64,000 nucleotides of DNA from Thermoanaerobaculia bacterium. Its GTDB lineage: Bacteria > Acidobacteriota > Thermoanaerobaculia > UBA5066. Within the stretch, counting starts at the first letter, position 1. Each line of letters opens with the position of its first letter. This document shows positions 34,945 to 47,845 of the stretch, in pieces. The stretch lies in contig CAVRAY010000001.1 of assembly GCA_963719225.1 (NCBI GenBank), positions 512,001 through 576,000 of the forward strand, given 5' to 3'. The translations under genes were made by a program, and so were the position numbers. Under the pieces are notes generated by a model that saw only the letters and a list, made by a program, of their open reading frames with translations, ran no database searches and had not been told where the DNA came from.

Positions 34945-36483
34945 TCACCGGCCCATGCCGGCTTCGTGCCCGAGAATCCGGAGCGCCCGCCCGTAGATCG
35001 CCTCCACTTCCTCGCGCGTGTTCCCGATCGCCGTCATTCCGAGCTTTCCATATTCCGAAAGCGCCCCGATGAGATGAAAGAGGACGCCCGATTCGGAATT
35101 GTGACTGTAGTGAAGGGAGTTGATCGTGACGATCTCGATGAGGTCCTCCGGCAGGAGTCCGCGGAACGTCTCCGACTGGAGGTTGTCCGTCGCGCGATAG
35201 AACTTCGGCGAGCCCCTGGGCGAATGAAAGAGGCCGGTCTCGGCATCGAGCTGCCCGCCCGTCAGGAACTGGAGCGCGAGGTAAGGATGCGTCGTGCCGC
35301 CCATGCGGAGGTTGATCTCGAGCGCCCACGCCTTCCAGGGGGCCGAGGGAGCGTCGCGGGTCACCAGGAAGTCGATCCCGAATCGGCTCACGACGCCCTT
35401 GGCGGCGAGAACAGCGCCGATCCGCAGGGCCACTTCGTGGATGTGCATCCGGTACGCGTCGTCTGCCGGAAAGAGGCAGCCGAGAAACACCTGGCCGCTC
35501 GGTCCTCCCAGGATCTGATCGTGGGTGGAGATGGGGATGACGGCACCGTGAGGACCGCTCCGGAGCTGGACGCTCGGCGAGGCCTTGAAGGGAGCCTCGA
35601 GGAACTCCTCGGCGATGCCGCCCATCCTTCGAAACTTCCCGTGGTAATCGCTCCACGTCTCCCACGGCACCGAGAACTCCACTGCGGGAAGCGTCGCGTG
35701 GACCGCCTCGGCGAGATCGCCGCGAGCGTCGGGATACCGGAAGACGGCGTTTCCCTCGCCCGAGAAACTGTCGTTCAGCTTCACGACCGCGCTCTTCAGG
35801 CCCGGTTTCCGCCGCTTGAGCTCGACGAGGGCCGCCTCGATGTCCTGGTCGTCGCGCAGGTCCTCGAGGCCGTCGGGAATCGCGATACCCGCCTCGCGGA
35901 AGATCTTCCGGCCTCCTGACTTCGTTCCGTACGCGTTGAGCGCGGGATCGACCCCGTTGAGCGGAATCCCGAGAAGGACCGAGAGCTTGCGCTCGAGGGC
36001 CGTCGAGTTGAATACCGTGAGGTATGCCCGTGAACGGTCGGCGATGCCCTGGCGGATGCGCTCGAGGAGGCGCGGGCGCTCGAGGATCTTCTCCGTGAGA
36101 GATCGCGGCGAGGCGTCGTGCGCGCAGAGGAGAGTCAGCCGGCTCCGCGCATGGCTCGTCGGGATGCCGACGAGGAGCTGGAAGTAATACTCGAGGACGA
36201 GGGGATGCACGGGCTGTGACGTGACGAAGACGACGCGCGCCCGCGGATTTCGAAGCCGGATGAGAAGGAAAAGCAGCCTCTCCTCGTAGAAGCTCGCTCC
36301 CTCGAGCTTCCTCATCTCGGCCTGGTCGAGCGTGAGCGAGGGAACGACGACCGACGTGTGCGGCTCCTGGTCACGTCCCGCGATCGAATCCCAGACCGCG
36401 GCGAGGCGCGGTTTGAGCGCCTCGAACTCGGCGAGCTCCTCGTCGAGCGTGAGCGCGGACGCGAACGGTGGGCGGGGGATCAA
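34945..36483 (-). CDS. ATP-grasp protein, peptide ligase PGM1-related
   Basis: YEERLLFLL, KLNDSFSGEGNA, STHDQILGG, FGIDF, EINLRMGGTTHP. Confidence 0.8.
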   Translation of the reverse strand: MIPRPPFASALTLDEELAEFEALKPRLAAVWDSIAGRDQEPHTSVVVPSLTLDQAEMRKLEGASFYEERLLFLLIRLRNPRARVVFVTSQPVHPLVLEYYFQLLVGIPTSHARSRLTLLCAHDASPRSLTEKILERPRLLERIRQGIADRSRAYLTVFNSTALERKLSVLLGIPLNGVDPALNAYGTKSGGRKIFREAGIAIPDGLEDLRDDQDIEAALVELKRRKPGLKSAVVKLNDSFSGEGNAVFRYPDARGDLAEAVHATLPAVEFSVPWETWSDYHGKFRRMGGIAEEFLEAPFKASPSVQLRSGPHGAVIPISTHDQILGGPSGQVFLGCLFPADDAYRMHIHEVALRIGAVLAAKGVVSRFGIDFLVTRDAPSAPWKAWALEINLRMGGTTHPYLALQFLTGGQLDAETGLFHSPRGSPKFYRATDNLQSETFRGLLPEDLIEIVTINSLHYSHNSESGVLFHLIGALSEYGKLGMTAIGNTREEVEAIYGRALRILGHEAGMGR

Positions 36484-36564: not shown

Positions 36565-37050
36565 ATGACGAGACGCCGGGGATTCACGCTCATCGAGCTC
36601 CTGATCGTCGTGGCGATCATCGGAATCATCGTCGCGATTGCCGTCGTGAACATGATCAACGCAATTCAGCGCGCGAAGCAGAAGCGCTCGATGGCGGACA
36701 TGAGGAGCCTCGCGACGGCAATCGAGGCGTACGCGACCGATCAGAATTACTATCCGGCCGCGGCCGGTTACACGTTGCCTTCAGGGCTCTCGCTCCCCAC
36801 CGGGACGCTCGGGCCGGTGCCGGACTCGCTCAGCCCGACGTACCTGAGGGTGGTGCCGCTCGTCGACGGGTGGAGCTCCTACTACACGTATGGGACCAGC
36901 ACCTCCCAGACCGACTTCGTGGTGCGCTCGGCCGGTGCCGACGGAGCCCTCGATTCCTCCCCGATTTGGGGCCTGACGACCAACTTCAACGCCGACATCA
37001 TCCTCGTCGACGGGACCTTCGTGCAGTACCCGGAGGGTGCTCAGAAATGA
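36565..37050 (+). CDS. Type IV pilin / GspG-like protein 1
   Basis: RRRG|FTLIELLIVVAIIGI class III signal; PLVDGW and SAGADG motifs. Confidence 0.92.
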   Translation: MTRRRGFTLIELLIVVAIIGIIVAIAVVNMINAIQRAKQKRSMADMRSLATAIEAYATDQNYYPAAAGYTLPSGLSLPTGTLGPVPDSLSPTYLRVVPLVDGWSSYYTYGTSTSQTDFVVRSAGADGALDSSPIWGLTTNFNADIILVDGTFVQYPEGAQK

Positions 37051-37224: not shown

Positions 37225-37731
37225 ATGAAGAAGAGGAACAACAAGGGATTCACCCTCATCGAGCTCTTGATCGTCGTGGCCATCATCGGCATCATCGTCG
37301 CCATCGCCATTCCGAACCTGCTCAACGCCATTCAGCGCGCCAAGCAGAAGAGGACGATGGGCGACATGCGGACGGCCGGCACGGCGGCCGAAGCGTACGC
37401 CGTCGATTTCAATCACTACCCGGCAGCCGCCGGCTACACGCTGCCGTCGGCTCTCACGTGGCCTTTCTCAGCCACCTTCGGCGCGCCGGGCTGCGCGGCC
37501 CCCTGCCTCAACGGCCAGGTGACCCCGACGTACGTCCGCCTCCTGCCGCTCACGGACGGCTGGAATTCGTACTTCCTCTATGCAAGCGGCACCCAGAACT
37601 ACGGGCTCGCGTCGAACGGGAAGGATGGCCTGCAGGAAACCCCCCCCTGGACCGAAACGACCAACTTCAACAACGACATCATCTTCGTCGACGGCCAATT
37701 CACCAATTACCCAGCGGGCGCGCAGAACTGA
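37225..37731 (+). CDS. Type IV pilin / GspG-like protein 2 (probable major pilin)
   Basis: KG|FTLIELLIVVAIIGIIVAIAIP; strong RBS, own promoter motif and terminator; paralog of pilin 1. Confidence 0.92.
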   Translation: MKKRNNKGFTLIELLIVVAIIGIIVAIAIPNLLNAIQRAKQKRTMGDMRTAGTAAEAYAVDFNHYPAAAGYTLPSALTWPFSATFGAPGCAAPCLNGQVTPTYVRLLPLTDGWNSYFLYASGTQNYGLASNGKDGLQETPPWTETTNFNNDIIFVDGQFTNYPAGAQN

Positions 37732-37803: not shown

Positions 37804-40101
37804 GTGGAGGTGCAAGGCCGCGGGACGATGGGACGGACGGCGCTCCTGGGCGGCGCCCTGGGACTGGCGTTCGCAAGCCTCCTTCTCGTCCGCTGCATCC
37901 TCACGGGGGGTGTACCGGCTCGAGGCGATCTTGCCGACTTCTTCTGGCCGATGAAGGCATACACCGCCGCGCGATGGCCTTCGGGAGTGCCGCTCTGGAA
38001 TCCCCTTTCGGGCTGCGGTGAGCCCTGGCTCGCGCAGCTTCAAACGGGAGTCTTCAACCCCGGAGACCTGCCGTTTCTGCTTCCGGGTGCCGCTGGCCCT
38101 CTTCTCGGAATCGCGCTCCACCTCGCGATCGCCGCGGCCGGAATGGCGGCCTGGCTATCGGCGCTCGGCACATCGCGCGCGGGCGCTCTCCTCGGGGCCG
38201 GTGTCTTTGCGGGAGGAGGCGCTTTTCTCTCCCTGGGGCTCGTGTACAACAACTTCGAAACGGCCGCCTTCCTGCCCTGGCTGTTCCTGTCGGCGCGGCA
38301 CGCGGCACGCGGCGGCTCGCCCGCAGGGCTCGCCGTCTCCCTCGCCCTCGCGTTTCTGGGCGGCGAGCCGGCCCTGGCCGCCGCCGGCGCGATGGCCGCG
38401 ACGTTCGTCGCGTTCGCAACGCAGCGCGACGAGCCGGGCCCGCCCCCGCGCGGCCTTCGGGGAGGCTCGCGCCTTCTGGGAGGGCTCGTTCTCGGCGCGG
38501 GCCTCACGGCCGCCGCCGCGATTCCGTTCCTGGAATACGCCGTGTCGTCCGGCCGGATCGCGGGCGTGACGAAGAAAGAAGCTCTCGCGCGACCGGTCGG
38601 CGCCTCGGACCTCGTCGACCTCGTCCTTCCGCCCACCGACGCCCTCCTCTTTCGACCGTCGGAAGGCCGTGGGGGATACCTCACGACCCTCGCCCTCTCG
38701 CCGCTCGTCCTCCTTCTCGCGGCGGGGTCGGGCGCAGGGTTCGCGGCCCGTCCCCGCCTCCTCGGCGCGCTGACGATCCTCGGTCTCGCGGGCTTCCTCC
38801 TCGCGCTCGGGGCGCGCGGCGGAATCCTCCCTTTGCTTTGGGACGTGGGGCTCGCGAAGGGCCTTCGGTTCCCCGCGCGCTGGTTCGTCCTGACGCACCT
38901 CGCGCTCTCGGGCCTCGCGGGGGCGGGCCTCGACGGTTGGCTGCACGGACGGGTCTTCGGATGGCCAAAAGGTCGTGCCCCCGAGGAGGGCGCAGACGCG
39001 TCGCCGTCCGCCGTCTCGCGCCTCGCCCCCGTCCTGGTCTTCGGCGCGGCGGCTGCTGCGCTCCTCGGCGCCGGAGCGGTCTCCGGACGTCTGACGGGTC
39101 TTTCCGCCTGGGCGGCGCTCGTCGGAGCGGGAGCCGGCGCTTCTGTTCTGGCGTCCGCGCGCGCCACCGGTCGCCCCGGCGCTTCCCTCGCGGGGCCGTT
39201 CCTCGTGGCGATCGTGACGTTGCCTCTCGTTCCGGCATCGGCGGGACTCTTCGCGCCGACGCCCCTGACGCGACCTCCTTCCGCCGTCGCGGATCTGGGC
39301 CGAACACCGGGCCGCGTGTTCCCGGTGGTCTCGGACGCACCCTTGCTCGCGGCATTGGCGCGTGAAGCCGGCGGAGAATGGGGCGGCGCGTCGGGTGTGC
39401 GCGCGCGTGCCGCTCTCTCCGGCTACACGAACCTCCCGCTCGGGATTTCCTCGGCCGCCTCACCGTCCCCGATCGGAAATCCCCGCTTGACGCGCTTCCT
39501 CGGAGCGGCGCTTTCGGGAGGAGACGTGGAGACCATCCTCGCCCTTGCGGACGTACGGCACGTGGTGTCTCCGTTCCCGACGACCATCCCCGGCCTTCGG
39601 CTCGAACGGCACGAAGCGGGGATCCGCATTTACGCTCTCTCGCGTTCGTTCGGTCGCGTGTTTTTCGCACGCGCGGCCCTTGAAGCGGACGACGATGCGG
39701 CTTTTCGCACGCTTGCCACGCCTCTCTTCGACGCGGAGGCGGTCGTCCTTCTCGCGCCGCCCTCGGGGCCCCTTCCCGCTCCCCGCGCGGGCCGGACGTT
39801 CTCGGTCGCGCGGGTCGTCACGGACGTGCCCGAGGCCCTGGCGGTGGACACGGAGGCCTCCGAGACGGGTTATCTCGTCGTCACGCGCTCGCACGGACCT
39901 GGATGGAAAGCACGCGTGGACGGAACGGAAGTCCCGCTCCGGCGGGCGGATCTCGCTTTCTCGGCCGTGCTCGTGCCCGCGGGTGCGCATCGCATCGAGC
40001 TCTCCTACCGCCCGACCTCGTTCCGAGTCGGCGCGGCTGTCTCCGTGACGTCGCTCGTCATCCTCGCCGGCCTTCTCCTCGCGGGCCAGAGGCCCTCGTG
40101 A
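37804..40101 (+). CDS. YfhO-family polytopic membrane protein (GT-C-like glycosyltransferase)
   Basis: GD...FWP, PLWNP..GCG.P, LRFPARW and C-terminal PGWKA.VDG...VPAG.H.IEL.Y.P; may start at ATG 37828. Confidence 0.8.
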   Translation: MEVQGRGTMGRTALLGGALGLAFASLLLVRCILTGGVPARGDLADFFWPMKAYTAARWPSGVPLWNPLSGCGEPWLAQLQTGVFNPGDLPFLLPGAAGPLLGIALHLAIAAAGMAAWLSALGTSRAGALLGAGVFAGGGAFLSLGLVYNNFETAAFLPWLFLSARHAARGGSPAGLAVSLALAFLGGEPALAAAGAMAATFVAFATQRDEPGPPPRGLRGGSRLLGGLVLGAGLTAAAAIPFLEYAVSSGRIAGVTKKEALARPVGASDLVDLVLPPTDALLFRPSEGRGGYLTTLALSPLVLLLAAGSGAGFAARPRLLGALTILGLAGFLLALGARGGILPLLWDVGLAKGLRFPARWFVLTHLALSGLAGAGLDGWLHGRVFGWPKGRAPEEGADASPSAVSRLAPVLVFGAAAAALLGAGAVSGRLTGLSAWAALVGAGAGASVLASARATGRPGASLAGPFLVAIVTLPLVPASAGLFAPTPLTRPPSAVADLGRTPGRVFPVVSDAPLLAALAREAGGEWGGASGVRARAALSGYTNLPLGISSAASPSPIGNPRLTRFLGAALSGGDVETILALADVRHVVSPFPTTIPGLRLERHEAGIRIYALSRSFGRVFFARAALEADDDAAFRTLATPLFDAEAVVLLAPPSGPLPAPRAGRTFSVARVVTDVPEALAVDTEASETGYLVVTRSHGPGWKARVDGTEVPLRRADLAFSAVLVPAGAHRIELSYRPTSFRVGAAVSVTSLVILAGLLLAGQRPS

Positions 40102-41276
40102 ACGCGGCCGATGGCGTCCTTCTGTGCTTCTTCTTCGCGACGGGGGCCGTCGTAGGATCGTTCGCGAACGTCTGCATCCACCGCCTGCCGCGAGGAGCCT
40201 CGGTCGTCCACCCGGGCTCGCACTGTCCGGCCTGTGGCGCCGCCATCGCTTTCTACGACAACGTCCCGCTCGTGTCCTGGCTCGTGCTCCGCGGCCGATG
40301 CCGCGGGTGCGGAGCTCCCATTCGCGTCCGCTACCCGGCCGTCGAGCTGCTCGTCGCGCTCCTTTTCCTCGCCGCGGGTCTCCTCTACGGACCCACGCTC
40401 GTCGCAGCCTCCGCGGCGATTCTCTCGGCAGCGTGCGTGATCCTCGCGGCCACCGATCTCGAGGCGCGCACGCTGCCCGACGAAGTGACGTTCTCGACGC
40501 TCGGGTGCGGGCTGCTTCTTGCGGCGCTTCGCGACCACGCGGCTCGAAGCCCGGATCGTCCTTCCGCCTTCCGCTTCGCGGAGAGCCATTTCTTCGAGGC
40601 GCTGCTGGGAGCGTTCCTGGGAGCGGTTTTTCTGGAAGGTGTGAGGCGCGCCTACGCGAGACTGCGCGGCCAGGAAGGGATGGGCGGCGGCGACGTGAAG
40701 ATGCTCGCGATGGCGGGAGCGTTCACCGGGCCCGCAGGCGTCTTTTTCACGCTCCTTTTCGCGTCTCTCGCGGGCACGGCGCTGGCGGGCGGCGCGGCGG
40801 CCGTACGAGCGCTCAACTGGTCTCTCGAAGCGCGGCGCGCGCGGCGCTCATCCTCCTCGGCCCGTGCGGTTGCCGCGCGAGCCGGACTTCTGGTCGGCGA
40901 GAACGGCCTCGTCCTCGCGGCCTCCGCCCGCTTTCGGGAGATTCCCGGAGCGGCGGCGGAGGGAACCCGGCTCACGGCGGATTTCCCCACGGCCGGGCGC
41001 CTTCTCGCGTTCGTGCGGCTGGCGCGGACGCGGGCGCGGCGCGGGGCGCGAACGGCGCACGGACGCATTGCGCTGGACGACGGGGCGGCTTTTTTCCGGG
41101 TCCTCGCGGCACGCGCCGAGCCGACGCCGGCAGGACTACTCGTCCTCCTCGCCCGTGCCGACGTGCCGTTCGGCGTGTTTCTCGCGTGCGGGGCGCTCGC
41201 GGCTTTCGTGGCCGGTCGCGCGCTCTGGGAAGTGGTGGCCGGAGCCCTGCCGTGGATCCCGAGGCTCCTGCCGTGA
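40098..41276 (+). CDS. pilD: Prepilin peptidase/N-methyltransferase (A24A) with ~119-aa insertion
   Basis: GSFANVCIHRLP, CPAC and CRGC, TD.E...LPD, GMGGGDVK, VPFG; GTGA overlaps on both sides. Confidence 0.92.
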   Translation: MNAADGVLLCFFFATGAVVGSFANVCIHRLPRGASVVHPGSHCPACGAAIAFYDNVPLVSWLVLRGRCRGCGAPIRVRYPAVELLVALLFLAAGLLYGPTLVAASAAILSAACVILAATDLEARTLPDEVTFSTLGCGLLLAALRDHAARSPDRPSAFRFAESHFFEALLGAFLGAVFLEGVRRAYARLRGQEGMGGGDVKMLAMAGAFTGPAGVFFTLLFASLAGTALAGGAAAVRALNWSLEARRARRSSSSARAVAARAGLLVGENGLVLAASARFREIPGAAAEGTRLTADFPTAGRLLAFVRLARTRARRGARTAHGRIALDDGAAFFRVLAARAEPTPAGLLVLLARADVPFGVFLACGALAAFVAGRALWEVVAGALPWIPRLLP

Positions 41277-43051
41277 CGGATCGCACGTTCGAGCGCGAGG
41301 TCCGCAACGTGATCGTCGGCGGTCTCGCGACGGTGCTTTTTCTCGCCGGGACCGCGGTCGTCGTCCTCCGGAACACCGTGGCATGGGGAGTGAGCGAAAA
41401 CCTGCGCCGCCTGACGGGGGAGACCGACGTCCTCGCGAACCGAATCGGCTCGGCACCCGACCCCGAGACGGCGCTCGTGTCTGATCCCCTCGTGGCACGC
41501 CTTCTCCGCGACGCGAACGCGCGCAGCGCCGCGATTTACGACGCGCAGGGTCGGCGCGTCGCCGATGCGCCCTTCCTCCCGGACGCGGGACTCGCGCCCG
41601 TGGCGGTGACACCGGCGGGAGGGCTGCCTTCTCTCCAGCCTCTCGTCGACGCGGCCGGCGGCGCTTCCCCCTCCATCACCGTTGCCCTTCCCGACGCGAC
41701 CCGAATGCTGCGGATCGTCTGGGACGGCACGTCGATCGCCGAAGCGCGCCGGAACGCCCGCATCCTCTCGATCGCGGTGCCCGCGGCCGCATTCGTCCTC
41801 GTCCTCCTCGTCGTGCCGTTCCTGAGGCGTCTCCTCGAACCGATCGACGCGCTCACTCAGGCCGCTCGGGGGGCCGGCGGGCTCGTCCCGGCCGTGCGTG
41901 CCGGCGGCGACGAAGCCGAGACGGCGATCGCGACGTTCCAACGGACGGTCGAGGAGCTGAAAAAACGCACCGCCGAGCTGGAAGGGCTCCGCAGCTCCGA
42001 AAAGCGGCGCGCCGACATCCTCGCGGTCACGGCCGACACTCTCGTGAGGTCGCATCCCGGCGGGCTCCTCGTCGTGGACGCCGCAGGCCGCCTGACGCAG
42101 GCGAACGTTCCGGCCCGCGAGCTCCTCGGTCTCTCCGAGGAGAGTCTCGGCTCCGCGGCCGCGGAAGCCGCGCTCGACGCGGTGCCCGCGATCCGAGAGG
42201 CGGCGCAGAGCGCTCGGGCCGGCACGCCGACGCTGTCGAAGGAGCTCGCGTTCGGAGAGGGAACCGACGCCCGCCTCGTCGAGCTCACGGCGGTCCCGAT
42301 CCTGGATTCCTCGAAGGCGGTCCTGGGCGTGCTCCTCTTCCTCGAGGACCGGACGACGACGAGGCGCCTCGAGCGCGAGCTGTCGTCCCGCCGCGAGCTG
42401 GCGGCGCTCGGCGAGATGTCGGCGGGAATCGCGCACGAGTTCCGGAACGCGACGGGAACGATCCTCGGGTGGGCGCGTCTCGCCGCGAAGACGGAGGATG
42501 CCGCTTCCCGGGCCCGCCAGCTCGAGGCGATCCAGGCGGAGGCCGAGCACGTCGCGCGCGTGACGGGCGATTTTCTCTTCTTCGGCCGGCCCGAGCGGCT
42601 CGAGGCGGGGCCGTGCGACCTGCGCGCCCTCGCGCTCGAGATCGCCGACGAGCAGCGTGCGCTGACGCCAGGCGTCGTGGTCGAGGTGATCGGAACGTTT
42701 TCCCCGGCGTTCGCCGACGCCGCTCTCGTTCGCCGCGCGCTCGTGAACCTCGTGAAGAACGCGTGCGAGGCCGCGGCGGCGGGCCCGCGCGCGGGGCGCG
42801 TGGCGCTGCGCGGCGAAGGCGAAGCGGCCGGGTTCGTCAGGATCGCCGTCGAGGACGACGGCTCAGGCGTGCCCGACGAGGCGGCGGCAAAGCTCTTCGT
42901 TCCGTTCTTCTCGACGAAGGACACGGGGACGGGGCTCGGCCTCGCCATGGTCGCGAAGATCGTCGCGCTCCACGCCGGCACGATCTCGGTGGGGCGCTCG
43001 TCGGGCCTCTCGGGGGCGCGGTTCGCGCTCGAGTTCCCCGCCGTGCCCTGA
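41273..43051 (+). CDS. Sensor histidine kinase with PAS domain (PilS/NtrB-like)
   Basis: Two TM segments, HAMP-like linker, PAS (GLLVVDAAGR..AN), AHEFRN H-box, NLVKNA, DDGSG, PFFSTK..GTGLGL. Confidence 0.92.
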   Translation: MTDRTFEREVRNVIVGGLATVLFLAGTAVVVLRNTVAWGVSENLRRLTGETDVLANRIGSAPDPETALVSDPLVARLLRDANARSAAIYDAQGRRVADAPFLPDAGLAPVAVTPAGGLPSLQPLVDAAGGASPSITVALPDATRMLRIVWDGTSIAEARRNARILSIAVPAAAFVLVLLVVPFLRRLLEPIDALTQAARGAGGLVPAVRAGGDEAETAIATFQRTVEELKKRTAELEGLRSSEKRRADILAVTADTLVRSHPGGLLVVDAAGRLTQANVPARELLGLSEESLGSAAAEAALDAVPAIREAAQSARAGTPTLSKELAFGEGTDARLVELTAVPILDSSKAVLGVLLFLEDRTTTRRLERELSSRRELAALGEMSAGIAHEFRNATGTILGWARLAAKTEDAASRARQLEAIQAEAEHVARVTGDFLFFGRPERLEAGPCDLRALALEIADEQRALTPGVVVEVIGTFSPAFADAALVRRALVNLVKNACEAAAAGPRAGRVALRGEGEAAGFVRIAVEDDGSGVPDEAAAKLFVPFFSTKDTGTGLGLAMVAKIVALHAGTISVGRSSGLSGARFALEFPAVP

Positions 43052-43062
43052 ACGCGCCCGAC

Positions 43063-44202
43063 TCAGCCGGCGGCGGCGGAAGCGGCGGGCCGCGCGGCCG
43101 CCGTCTTCCTCTTCTCCACGAGGGCCTTGAACGCTTCCTTGTCGAGCGCCTTCTCGAGCGCGTCGTCCGGGTCCACCGTCGCCGCCACGACGAGGTCGGC
43201 GAGATACTGGTCCATCCCGATCATCCCGGCGTTGCGGCCCGTCTGGATGAGCGTCGTGATCATGTTCGTCTTTCCCTCGCGGATGCTGTTCGAGAGCGCG
43301 GAGGATCCGCGGAGCACCTCGAAAGCGGGAGCGCGGCCGCCCCCCTTCTTCTTCAGGAGAACCTGGGCGACGACGGCTTTCAGCACCTCGGCGAGGACGG
43401 TACGAGTCTGCTCCTGCTCCTCGGCAGGGAAGCTGTCGATGAGGCGGTCCACGGCCTTCGACGCCGAGTTCGTGTGGAGCGTCCCGAAGACGAGGAGTCC
43501 CGTCTCGGCCGCCTGAAGAGCCATCGACATCGTCTCGAGGTCGCGGAGCTCGCCGACGAGAACGACGTCCGGGTCTTCCCGGAGCGCCGCCTTCAGCGCG
43601 CCGGCGAACGTCGGCGTGTCGAAACCGAGCTCGCGGTGCGAGATCAGCGACTTCTGCGGCACGTGGAGGAACTCGACGGGATCCTCGATCGTCACGATGT
43701 GCGAAGCGCGGGTCCGGTTGATCCAGTCGAGAAGGGCCGCGAGGGTCGTGGACTTTCCCGAGCCCGTCGGGCCGGTCACGAGGACGAGGCCCCGCGGGAC
43801 GCGGGCGACGTTCGAGACGATCGGGGGCAGCCCCAGCTCCTCGATCCCGAGGACCTTCGGCGGGATCATGCGCAGGACCGCCCCCGATCCGTGCTCCTGG
43901 CGAAAGAGATTGACGCGGAAGCGCGCGATCTTGCCCATCGCGTAGGCGAAGTCGGCATCGCCCGTCTCCTGCCAGTCCTTGAAAGGCTTCTCGGGAGCGA
44001 TCGGCGCGATGAGGCTCTCGTATTCTTCCTCGGTCAGCGTGCGCCACTTGAGCCTCTGGAGATCCCCGTCCACGCGGACGATCGGCGGCGATCCCACGGC
44101 GAGATGGAGATCCGAGGCTTTCTTGTCGACGACGATCCTGAGGAGCGTGTCGATCCGGTTGATCCCCATGTCCGAGGGGGCGGGCGCGGCCGGCTTCGTC
44201 AT
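43063..44202 (-). CDS. pilT: PilT-family pilus retraction ATPase
   Basis: ASDLHL, RFRVN, GPTGSGKST, EDPVE, DPDVVLVGELRD, TLHT, ALSNSIRE. Confidence 0.93.
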   Translation of the reverse strand: MTKPAAPAPSDMGINRIDTLLRIVVDKKASDLHLAVGSPPIVRVDGDLQRLKWRTLTEEEYESLIAPIAPEKPFKDWQETGDADFAYAMGKIARFRVNLFRQEHGSGAVLRMIPPKVLGIEELGLPPIVSNVARVPRGLVLVTGPTGSGKSTTLAALLDWINRTRASHIVTIEDPVEFLHVPQKSLISHRELGFDTPTFAGALKAALREDPDVVLVGELRDLETMSMALQAAETGLLVFGTLHTNSASKAVDRLIDSFPAEEQEQTRTVLAEVLKAVVAQVLLKKKGGGRAPAFEVLRGSSALSNSIREGKTNMITTLIQTGRNAGMIGMDQYLADLVVAATVDPDDALEKALDKEAFKALVEKRKTAAARPAASAAAG

Positions 44203-46724
44203 TCGAGGGCCTGCTTCTCGTCGGCGATGAGCTTCTCGAAAGGCTCCTTCTTGAGCGCTTTCTCGACGGCGATCTCGGGGTCGACCTTCCCGTCCTCGCA
44301 GAGCTTCTGGAGCGACTGGTCCATGGTCATCATGCCGGCCATCTGGCCCGTCTGGAGCTGGGACGGGAGCTGATGCGTCTTGCCTTCTCGAATCAGCGAC
44401 GCCACCGCTGCGGTCGAGCGGAGGATCTCGAAGGCGGCGACGCGACCCGCGAATCCTCGACGCGGAAGGAGGACCTGGGAGACGACCGCCTTCAGCGAAT
44501 CCGAGAGCATCACGCGCACCTGTCCCTGCTGCCCGGCGGGGAACGAGCTGATGATACGGTCGATCGTCGCGGGCGCGTTCGTCGTGTGAAGGGTGCCGAG
44601 CACGAGGTGGCCCGTCTCCGAGGCCGTGATCGCGAGCGCGATCGTCTCGAGATCGCGCATTTCGCCCACGAGGATGACGTCCGGGTCCTCGCGAAGGGCC
44701 GCCTTGAGCGCCCGCGCGAACGAGGCCGTGTGGTGAGGAACCTGGCGCTGGTTCACCATCGCTTCCTTGTTCGGGTGGACGAACTCCACGGGATCCTCGA
44801 CCGTGATGATGTGGCAGGGACGCGTCTCGTTGATGCGGTCGATCAGCGCGGCGAGCGTCGTGGACTTTCCGCATCCGGACGAGCCCGTCACGAGGACGAG
44901 GCCCTGCGAAAACTTGAGGACGTCCGACAGGGACGGGGGAAGTCCGATCTCCTCGATCGTCGGAATGGTCTTCGGCACGAGCCGGAAGCAGGCGTCGAAC
45001 CCCCCGCGCTGGGAGTAGAAGTTCGCGCGGAAGCGCCCAAGCCCCGGGAGCTTCAGGCAGACGTCGATCTGCCTTTCGCGCTCGAGCCGCTTCCACTCGG
45101 TCTCGTCGAGCACTTCCCGGATGAGCTGGGTGGCGCGCGCACGCGTCATCGGCGGCGCGTCCACCGGCTCGAGCATGCCCTGCATCCGACGGTGCGGGAC
45201 GAATCCGGTCGCGAGATGGAGGTCCGAGGCTCCGCGCTGGACCATGTCGGCCAGGTACTCGACGAGCCGCGCGTTCTGGTTGCCGGCCAGCTCGACGGTG
45301 GCCACTTCCTGCTCGATCTCGGGGAGGGCGTCGCGCGCGTCGTCGCCCATGAGCCTGCCGACGAGGCGGCGGGCCCGCTCCCTCACCGCCTGGTCGAGCT
45401 GCGCCATCTGGACGACCCTCGAGCAGATCGTGACGACCTGCTGCTGGACGCGCGCCTCGGCCACGGCGAGCTTTCCCATCGCGTCGAGGATCTCCATCTG
45501 GACGTCGGGACGCGTGACGGCGCCCTTGAACGCGTCGAGAAGCGGCTGCGCGGCGCGTGCGTCGGCGAGCTCCCCGAGCGCGGAGGCCGCCGCGATGACG
45601 ACCTCGGGATCCTTGAGAGCCTGGAGGAGGCGCGCGAGGACCTGATCGTTTCCCTGTCCGGTTCGCCCCAGCGTCTCGATGGCGCGCGTCCTCACCCAGA
45701 GGTCGGGATCGTCGACGAGCTTGATCCACACGGGAAGAGCCTTGGCGTCATTGAGCGCGAGCGTCATCTCCGAAGCGGCCTTCGCGAACGCGGGATCCGC
45801 GTCCCTCGTGAGCAGGAGAAGGGCGTTCACGAAGCCGGGGAGGCCGTCCCGGGCGGCCTCGACGGCGCGGTCCCTCACCCAGACGAAGGCGCCGCGGAAG
45901 TGCTCGAGGATCCGGCGCGCGAGGAGCTCCGGTGCGTAGGGCATGAGGAGGTTCACGGCGCCGTGTCGCACGATGGCGTTCCCGTCCGCAAGAAGGGGAA
46001 CGATCTCGGGCGTGTGGTCCTGCTTGGCCGTCGTGAGGAGTCGCTTGAGGGCCGAGAAAGACGCTTCCGCCACGCGTCCTCCGCCCGTCCGCGCCATCTG
46101 GAGGACGTCGGGGAAGTAGCTCTCGTTCGGGTTCTTCTCGAGGACCGCGAGGGCCGAGTAGCGGATCTCCTCGTTCTCGTCCTGAAGCAGCGGGACGGCG
46201 AGGCTCGCCGCCACGGCCGCGCTGCCCTCGAACGTCATCTCGCCCACCGCTTTGAGGGCGCGCGCGCGCACGGCGGGATTGGACGCGGTGAGCACGCGGC
46301 GCGCGATGTCGAACGACGCTTCGGCGGGAAGCTCTTTGGCGAGCTCGAGGGCGGCGAGACGGGCGAAGTCGTCCCCCCGCGATCCGATCTCCTGCAGGAA
46401 CGGCCCGAGCTGCGGACCCGCGAGCTCCTTGAGGAAACGCATGACGGCGCGCCGCACGGCTTCCGAACGCGTCTTCAGGAGCGGAACGAGCGCCTCGAGG
46501 CCGGCACGATCGCGCCGCCGCCTGAGAATGGCGAGGCCTGCCGCCCGGATCTCGGGAATCGGCTCGAGCGCCGTCCAGACGAGCCACTCGACGTCCGGCT
46601 TGGTGATGGCGTAGAACTTCTCGAGGAGCTCTCTCTTTTGCTCCTCGCTCGTCCACTTGTGTTCCCGAAGCTGGGCGACGACGGCAGGCTCCGACCGCAG
46701 GCCGCGCAGCTTCTCGAGAACCAT
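44199..46724 (-). CDS. HEAT-repeat-PilT ATPase fusion protein
   Basis: About 480 aa of HEAT/PBS-like repeats (VRRAV, VRARAL, IRYSAL, VRHGAV, VRDRAV, VRTRAI) then a full PilT domain (ASDLHL, GSSGCGKST, GEMRD, TGHLV.GTLHT). ATG 46724 after GGAGAGG. Confidence 0.9.
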   Translation of the reverse strand: MVLEKLRGLRSEPAVVAQLREHKWTSEEQKRELLEKFYAITKPDVEWLVWTALEPIPEIRAAGLAILRRRRDRAGLEALVPLLKTRSEAVRRAVMRFLKELAGPQLGPFLQEIGSRGDDFARLAALELAKELPAEASFDIARRVLTASNPAVRARALKAVGEMTFEGSAAVAASLAVPLLQDENEEIRYSALAVLEKNPNESYFPDVLQMARTGGGRVAEASFSALKRLLTTAKQDHTPEIVPLLADGNAIVRHGAVNLLMPYAPELLARRILEHFRGAFVWVRDRAVEAARDGLPGFVNALLLLTRDADPAFAKAASEMTLALNDAKALPVWIKLVDDPDLWVRTRAIETLGRTGQGNDQVLARLLQALKDPEVVIAAASALGELADARAAQPLLDAFKGAVTRPDVQMEILDAMGKLAVAEARVQQQVVTICSRVVQMAQLDQAVRERARRLVGRLMGDDARDALPEIEQEVATVELAGNQNARLVEYLADMVQRGASDLHLATGFVPHRRMQGMLEPVDAPPMTRARATQLIREVLDETEWKRLERERQIDVCLKLPGLGRFRANFYSQRGGFDACFRLVPKTIPTIEEIGLPPSLSDVLKFSQGLVLVTGSSGCGKSTTLAALIDRINETRPCHIITVEDPVEFVHPNKEAMVNQRQVPHHTASFARALKAALREDPDVILVGEMRDLETIALAITASETGHLVLGTLHTTNAPATIDRIISSFPAGQQGQVRVMLSDSLKAVVSQVLLPRRGFAGRVAAFEILRSTAAVASLIREGKTHQLPSQLQTGQMAGMMTMDQSLQKLCEDGKVDPEIAVEKALKKEPFEKLIADEKQALE

Positions 46725-47034
46725 CAGCCCCTCTCCATGGTCCGCTATCGTAGCTCGCGCGCAGCGGGCTGCGCCCGCGCCCGGAGAAGGGGCGCGCGAG
46801 CATCTGCCATTTCGCAGGGAAACCCCGCCCGGGTTTCCCTGCACCTTTCCTCGCGCCGGAGACACGTTTGATTACCCGCCGTTCGGTGTCGGTGCTCGCC
46901 GGGAATCGTCCGCCACCGGTCAGCGTGTGTTACGAAATGTGTCGATTCGATCGACGCATTCGCTCTGGACCTGAGGGGGGACTACGGGTATAAGATCCCT
47001 GCCACGAGTCGTTTGGCTGTCAGAATCGGATTGC

Positions 47035-47048: not shown

Positions 47049-47067
47049 TTTGGAAAGGCGGATCTCC

Positions 47068-47845
47068 ATGATGAGCGTTACGCTTCCGCTTGCCAGTCCC
47101 CCTCACCCGGCGCCCTCGCGTTCCGCGAGAGGATCGAGAGGATCGAGAGGATTCAGCCTCGTCGAGATGCTCGCGGTCGTCGCGATCCTAGGGATCATCG
47201 CCATCCTCGGCGGAGGCGAGATCTCCGAGGGCCTGGAAGCGCCAGAAGGTGCAGAGCGCCTCCACCGACATCAAGGTCCTGCTGCAGAGGGCGCTCCCGG
47301 AGATGCAGCGCCGGAACATGCGCACGTTCATCCAGGTCGGTCCCTTCACCACCGCGGGCGGGGCGCAGTGGATGCCGATATTCCTCGTGGGCGACGCGGA
47401 TGGGGACGGCGTCCTCTCCTGCTTCGCGAATCCGCCGACAGTGGCGTGTCCGGACCTCCTCATCTCGCAATACGACATCATCGTGGTGGGCAAGACCGGC
47501 ACGAAGGGGACGACGGGCGTGGACCAGGAGTTCAGCCTCTCCGACCTTGGCTTGAACCAGGTCGCGTCCACGCTCTGGTCGGACAACACGACGAACTGGC
47601 TCAATCCGCGCGTCCTCATGTGCGACTTCCAGGGGCGTGCCATCGACGTCCTGACGGGCCGGCAGATCGCAGGTCCCGCGACGATCGTTCTCACGCACGT
47701 GAACGTCGTCACCGGGGGCCTGAACCCCCTGACGCGTTACGTGATCAGCGTCAACCCGGTCTGGAGCGTCCGCGTCGCGAAGCAGACCACGGCGGGCCCG
47801 TTCCCGATCACGGCGGCGAACGTGTGGATGACCCAAAATGGCTGA
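47068..47845 (+). pseudogene. FimU/GspH-like minor pilin with +1 frameshift near 47225-47227 (pseudogene or sequence error)
   Basis: G|FSLVEMLAVVAILGII is in frame 1 and the body RAWKRQKVQSAS...DFQGRA is in frame 2; removing one base from TCCG restores EISRAWKRQ. Confidence 0.8.
47126..47152 (+). repeat. (CGAGAGGAT)x3 tandem repeat in prepilin leader
   Basis: Three perfect 9-bp units ending at the G|F cleavage site. Confidence 0.9.

Follow-up and report, generated by a model that had tools for sequence, protein, structure and literature searches.

A probable PAS-fold domain in the last loop of the prepilin peptidase PilD, conserved throughout a family of Thermoanaerobaculia

To our knowledge, the literature treats prepilin peptidases as stand-alone enzymes that have a single cytoplasmic domain and no known regulation. 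The bacterial enzyme PilD unites the domains PF06750 and PF01478, has CxxC pairs, two aspartates, a GxGD and a PFG motif and eight predicted membrane helices, and is encoded among pilus genes; its PFG motif may be related to the PAL motif of presenilin. According to a review (PMC10191384), the methylase domain is the only large cytoplasmic part of bacterial PilD, the catalytic aspartates and the zinc domain lie on the cytoplasmic side, and processing by PilD requires no partner. The archaeal enzyme FlaK is described as having a soluble domain on the cytoplasmic side, to which no function has been assigned (PMC4471445, PMC4985597).

The pilD gene analysed here is found in a stretch of 64,000 nucleotides from a Thermoanaerobaculia bacterium, which as a whole is called the window (Table 1). 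Its product shares with bacterial PilD all the traits listed above, including the position of the gene among pilus genes, and differs in having a second, probably cytoplasmic part of 119 amino acids in the last loop. By all sequence tests run, it is a member of A24A: the Pfam scores are 67.3 bits for Peptidase_A24 (curated cut-off 26.5) and 116.8 for A24_N (cut-off 23). Of 40 insert-bearing rows, 39 have the zinc cysteines C43, C46, C68 and C71, and the remaining one is N-terminally truncated; D120 as well as G196, G198 and D199 of the G196-G-G198-D199 motif are each found in all 40. D120 and D199 are presumably catalytic, by analogy with the family, and the PFG motif is intact. From the intact motifs and the prepilin genes nearby we infer that PilD would cleave and methylate prepilins. 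A search of the genome with the PF01478 profile found no further A24 peptidase, and a pattern search found 8 prepilin-like genes. Two further residues, R124 and E129 (window 40470-40484, PilD residues 124-129), occur in 40/40 insert-bearing PilD and are rare in 12 short-loop PilD; R190 occurs in 38/40. An arginine of the insert may have E129 as its partner.

Table 1. Features of the pilD locus, with positions counted from the first nucleotide of the window.
Feature	Position	Strand	Remarks
IQCH-like ATP-grasp / PGM1_C protein	34945-36483	-	divergent from pilin genes
Two prepilin genes, likely substrates	36565-37050, 37225-37731	+	
YfhO-like membrane protein	37804-40101	+	between pilin genes and pilD; stop overlapped by pilD start (4 nt)
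pilD, prepilin peptidase / N-methyltransferase	40098-41276	+	392 aa, GTG start
A24_N zinc/methylase domain	40140-40376	+	residues 15-93, PF06750 E 4e-34
Peptidase_A24 domain	40419-40787	+	residues 108-230, PF01478 E 2e-18
D120	40455-40457	+	putative catalytic aspartate
D199	40692-40694	+	putative catalytic aspartate
Insert, whole	40806-41162	+	residues 237-355, 119 aa
Insert, first part	40806-40883	+	residues 237-262, two predicted helices
Predicted PAS core	40884-41162	+	residues 263-355, ends at D355
P-F-G motif and last membrane helix	41166-41240	+	residues 357-381
Overlap of pilD stop and kinase start	41273-41276	+	4 nt, GTGA
Membrane histidine kinase	41273-43051	+	592 aa; two membrane helices, PAS, HisKA, HATPase
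Kinase PAS domain	42038-42349	+	residues 256-359, PF08448 E 9e-9
Plain PilT	43063-44199	-	passes TIGR01420
PilT/PilU-family ATPase fused to ~470 residues of HEAT repeats	44199-46745	-	passes TIGR01420

That about 119 residues stand between the penultimate membrane helix and the V-P-F-G motif, as the original prediction had it, was confirmed by translation, which is free of stops and in frame with pilD, and by comparison with two sister families. In all 12 PilD cut from these families the GxGD motif is followed by about 80 residues up to the stop, as against about 199 in the window's PilD; their last loop has about 10 residues, and PilD has 119 extra. As the insert is carried by 85 database proteins, an assembly artefact is ruled out. 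In the model, the first insert helix continues the penultimate membrane helix; R237 and W241 are nearly invariant in residues 237-262, and the others are variable. The core is modelled with strands at 263-266, 271-275, 321-327, 333-343 and 346-353 and with a short helix (277-280) and a long one (296-314) that are separated by a loop. With its last strand the core comes to within three residues of the PFG proline, and a two-residue link joins it to the PFG motif and the last membrane helix. Since the two helices after GxGD bring the chain back to the side of the aspartates and the zinc domain, and since Arg/Lys are in excess (21 versus 9 Asp/Glu), the insert probably faces the cytoplasm. It also contains a conserved acidic hairpin, D/E327-D328.

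Judging from predicted structures, the insert very probably has a PAS fold. Whole PilD was modelled by AlphaFold2 with a mean pLDDT of 88.2 (83-96 in the insert) and a pTM of 0.81, and a second AlphaFold2 model, of the insert alone, reached 88.6 and 0.83. The order of elements in the models is that of a PAS domain with two preceding helices, and the five-stranded antiparallel sheet with its helical connector is PAS-like over most of the domain. When the insert was compared with 48,161 chains, the 50 top rows were all PAS or Cache domains (70-111 residues aligned), led by 3fc7 (Z 8.4, rmsd 2.8, 87 aligned); their Z of 6.0-8.4 is near the middling level of the tool. With the whole protein, FlaK ranked first and the other 49 rows aligned to the insert (best Z 8.9). 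PAS domains also rank first in Foldseek, with best E of 0.011 and 0.013, TM-scores to about 0.6 and no match to the insert at E 0.001 or better, and in an Atlas feature search PAS and PYP clusters came out at 0.83-0.84, which is a lead only. Two models and three fold searches thus back the PAS-like character claimed in the original prediction; the insert appears neither disordered nor of another fold, as both AlphaFold models are confident and the matches are PAS/Cache.

At the level of sequence, Pfam and NCBIfam place no family on the insert above noise, Pfam PAS models match none of 16 insert-bearing members even at E 10, and a PDB sequence search with the insert gave no PAS match; the insert profile weakly matches a true PAS domain (E 3.5e-4). 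With the cytoplasmic PAS domains of AtoS/NtrB-type kinases (PAS_4), that of the neighbouring kinase included, the insert has in common the predicted topology, a GLLV-x-x-DGR start, Gly after the C-helix and the F-helix, a Pro ending the H strand and a terminal Asp. It differs in falling below all PAS profile thresholds, in the loss of the conserved Asn, in D/E helices that are predicted as loop, in being rich in arginine and in its place between two membrane helices of a membrane enzyme. The best structural match of the whole model is archaeal FlaK (3s0x; Z 11.8, rmsd 3.4, 154 aligned), which lacks the methylase domain that PilD has. The soluble domain of FlaK appears to lie before its last membrane helix, and the aligned range of 3s0x fits its being in the same loop as the insert. 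This FlaK/PibD domain (IPR009655) has four antiparallel strands, is not described as PAS and is unrelated to the insert; it is absent from the best 50 rows of matches to the insert alone.

A database search with the insert region returned 85 proteins, namely 84 prepilin peptidases and a chimera (P0088), which was dropped from the insert-bearing set. All 24 named genome loci with the insert belong to Thermoanaerobaculia or Acidobacteriota. The insert profile was run against 400 genomes from the class and matches 34 of the 38 other genomes of the window's family, from 9 genera, and 1 of the 362 outside it, weakly; the four misses within the family are two genomes without a pilD match and two where it ends at a contig edge, all broken assemblies. 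In a draw of 400 genomes from the phylum, which overlaps that from the class, 3/3 family members match and 2/397 others do so weakly. The three weak matches (G214, G552, G487) were rejected by eye as two low-complexity frames and one unrelated ORF, and in the 759 genome searches of these overlapping draws the insert was not found in genomes of other families. When 1.84 billion representatives were searched with the profile, there were 12 matches, 11 to insert-bearing PilD or fragments and one to a repeat protein that was dropped (P0099); none was a free-standing relative of the insert. Whether close orthologs have the insert, a point left to be seen by the original prediction, is answered by the family genomes and database proteins that carry it.

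In a tree of 52 proteins, computed without the insert columns, 40 insert-bearing proteins are set apart from 12 short-loop ones with a support of 100/100. Given this clean split, the simplest reading is that the insert arose once. Wherever the gene is assembled in the family, the PAS core is present and has not been shortened. A survey of long PilD returned 11 from 7992 candidates scored, and PAS inserts of independent origin may exist elsewhere. Unrelated acidic inserts occur in the same last loop of P0106 and P0107; larger unrelated inserts, that of P0109 being likely strand-rich, stand before GxGD in P0108-P0110. The original prediction knew of no PilD-PAS fusion, and we likewise found none in titles and abstract openings of the open-access literature; the available parts of PMC4307647, PMC10117864 and PMC4858521 contain nothing on inserts. 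This family-wide architecture is apparently undescribed.

The original prediction also saw a resemblance between the insert and the PAS domain of the kinase encoded next to it. This resemblance is invisible to BLASTP (best E 1.2, nothing usable) and weak when profiles are compared (HH probability 27.7%, 77 columns, pairwise E 6e-4; 4.4% and 25 columns against a generic profile built from the other PAS domains of this genome). It holds up modestly in a ranking: among the 57 PAS domains of the genome, that of the window's kinase is the best match to the insert profile with a score of 25.3, as compared to a mean of 12.4 for the 56 others (sd 3.1, maximum 23.6) and 11.2 for 100 shuffles (maximum 21.2). 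Because it outscores all of these, we consider it likely, with modest confidence, that the insert is a local duplication of the kinase PAS. The gene order YfhO-pilD-kinase-pilT predates the insert, as 7 of 12 short-loop loci also have the kinase downstream of pilD.

In the insert family, 4 of the 17 genome loci that were fetched have lost the kinase PAS. PAS-less kinases of 479-503 aa, with clean in-frame deletions, were found at L080-L082, L087, L111, L116, L120 and L126; for the metagenome loci L080-L082 and L087, Pfam agrees for the two tested. At L084 and L085 pilT stands directly after pilD; the kinase is absent from the locus and may be elsewhere in the genome. There are two different deletion junctions and the tree keeps one clade possible (p-AU 0.36), so that the PAS was lost in one or two events. 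In a sister family, 74 of 81 genomes have a kinase match with no PAS-sized gap, as read from the table; one further kinase is frameshifted but has its PAS covered, and in the remaining six no kinase was found. The unpublished genome G025 is part of these counts, and no conclusion rests on it. At loci where the kinase is PAS-less or absent, 18/18 of the invariant residues of the insert are kept in four of five proteins and 16/18 in the fifth. In PAS-less-kinase lineages, to which P0093 was assigned on similarity and without genomic context, divergence of the insert slightly exceeds expectation (10/10 pairs, which are not independent), though not beyond what is seen in lineages that have the PAS, for example L112, L117 and L125. 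Pairwise dN/dS in these lineages is 0.29, 0.41 and 0.65 for the insert versus 0.19, 0.18 and 0.40 for the rest.

Across the family, dN/dS is 0.19 for the PAS core versus 0.18 for the rest of PilD (370 of 1830 pairs, 75-97% identity; kin are not independent), and the insert is under purifying selection like the enzyme. L022 and L054, which have frameshifts in the insert, were left out of the conservation and dN/dS analyses; including them also gave 0.19. In 130 distinct insert sequences, R312 is invariant (130/130), R237, R307, R353, P283, F333 and D355 are each present in 129, and W241, G263, G289, A304 and R323 each in 128. The positions conserved in 28 representatives of <72% identity are Gly/Pro turns, W241, F332-F333, D355 and arginines; neither these nor the 130 sequences have a conserved Cys, His, Met or Tyr in the insert. 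No ligand of a heme, flavin, chromophore or iron-sulfur cluster and no LOV motif is conserved in the 130 sequences.

Several neighbours of pilD are not confined to insert-bearing relatives. The YfhO-like gene is also present in short-loop relatives and conserved across the order, with further YfhO-like matches upstream of the pilins in sister families; its product is a candidate pilin glycosyltransferase. The pair of HEAT-fused PilT/PilU and plain PilT also occurs in sister families. The IQCH-like gene is kept beside the pilins across the family with 72-93% identity. The leader of major pilins ends on K/R-G in the insert family and mostly on E/D-S/A-G in the sister families (L089-L100 compared with L031-L073 and L110-L126), which is a single tree split and was not used as evidence. 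A minor prepilin gene (start near 47050-47150) has one extra base at about 47226 as compared to two relatives; it shifts the frame after the N-terminal helix and is an assembly error or a real break.

We tentatively prefer the possibility that the PAS-fold insert, likely derived from the kinase, serves to brace or cover the active site from beside it, with no need of a cofactor, and is not a classical sensor. The invariant arginines 237, 307, 312, 323, 334 and 353 would bind an anionic surface, which might be formed by the head groups of lipids or by an acidic patch on the enzyme or on a partner. Such arginine anchoring would hold the last membrane helix, and the helix so held may shape the access of prepilin leader peptides. 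Entry into the domain would be made rigid by the predicted continuation of the penultimate membrane helix, and exit by the predicted link of only two residues between the last PAS strand and PFG. Arginine is favoured in G+C-rich genomes, which counts against this reading, and the strand register is equally compatible with arginines towards the pocket and on the outer face. The low dN/dS of the insert could come from fold stability alone. Its relaxation in PAS-less-kinase lineages fits some link to the kinase PAS and counts against a brace.

If the insert were a true sensor, a small anionic ligand would bind in the PAS pocket and the last strand would pull on D355-V-P-F-G and the last helix, switching maturation. 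PAS domains usually signal through that end of the C-terminal strand which here is joined to PFG, and in the model the last strand leads straight to this motif and the first helix extends the membrane helix without a break; R353 and D355 are nearly invariant and small residues are conserved on the strands. This speaks for a sensor, but we favour it less as no cofactor-binding residue is conserved and invariant arginines dominate. Moreover, G/S stands where the C-helix of PAS domains usually has Asn, a loop is predicted in place of the D/E helices, no regulated PilD was found in the open-access literature, and gating of the only A24 peptidase found would hit all 8 prepilin-like genes. We regard a sensor as unlikely, if with an appreciable chance, and say the same of gating throughout the family, where a PAS domain captured from the kinase would bind an anionic ligand and move the PFG helix, some kinases then shedding their own PAS. 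The insert might instead be a kinase fragment that landed in a tolerant loop, to which the enzyme adapted and of which selection keeps only the fold. PilD loops do accept unrelated inserts (in the same loop of P0106 and P0107, before GxGD in P0108-P0110), and a single origin would fit; the near-invariance of R312, R237, R307 and R353 is, however, more than folding alone usually needs, and the PAS core is never lost or shortened in assembled family genes, which makes such an entrenched passenger rather unlikely.

The original prediction had proposed that PilD may dock on the kinase through PAS-PAS contact. By such contact, or another, with the co-translated kinase, PilD might report the state of pilin processing. 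In favour of this are the 4-nt overlap of the two genes, the likely common origin of both PAS domains, the slightly relaxed constraint on the insert in lineages without the kinase PAS, and deletions of the kinase PAS only in the insert family (4/17 loci, one or two events), with none in 75 sister-family kinases. The proposal is weakened by the persistence of the insert, with its invariant residues, where the kinase PAS is deleted (L080-L082, L087, L111, L116, L120, L126) or the kinase is absent from the locus (L084, L085); the order of pilD and kinase is older than the insert, and the kinase PAS would lie about 70 residues past the membrane, which the insert adjoins. A complex prediction for the insert with two copies of the kinase linker-plus-PAS scored 0.00 twice, with controls that did not fold, and counts neither for nor against binding. 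Docking is improbable in our view, and obligatory PAS-PAS docking is unlikely. Finally, the insert could be a look-alike that is not homologous to PAS and has merely a similar arrangement of helices and sheet. For this one may cite that it and 16 relatives have no PAS match in Pfam or NCBIfam, that the PDB sequence search gave none either, and that 1.84 billion representatives hold no free-standing relative. Strand order, coverage of the full domain and the uniform PAS/Cache matches argue against it, as do traces in the sequence (rank 1/57, the weak profile match to a true PAS), and it is very improbable.

A brace or lid beside the active site is thus the role that we tentatively prefer for what looks like a domain of a neighbouring gene copied into an enzyme loop. 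Thanks to its added soluble domain, this PilD is attractive for structural studies; a PDB sequence search found no bacterial PilD among solved structures. A PAS-fold domain that is wired to a helix adjacent to the active site, family-wide, provides a handle on whether pilin maturation is controllable. If gating were true, pilus biogenesis would be controlled at the step of pilin maturation.
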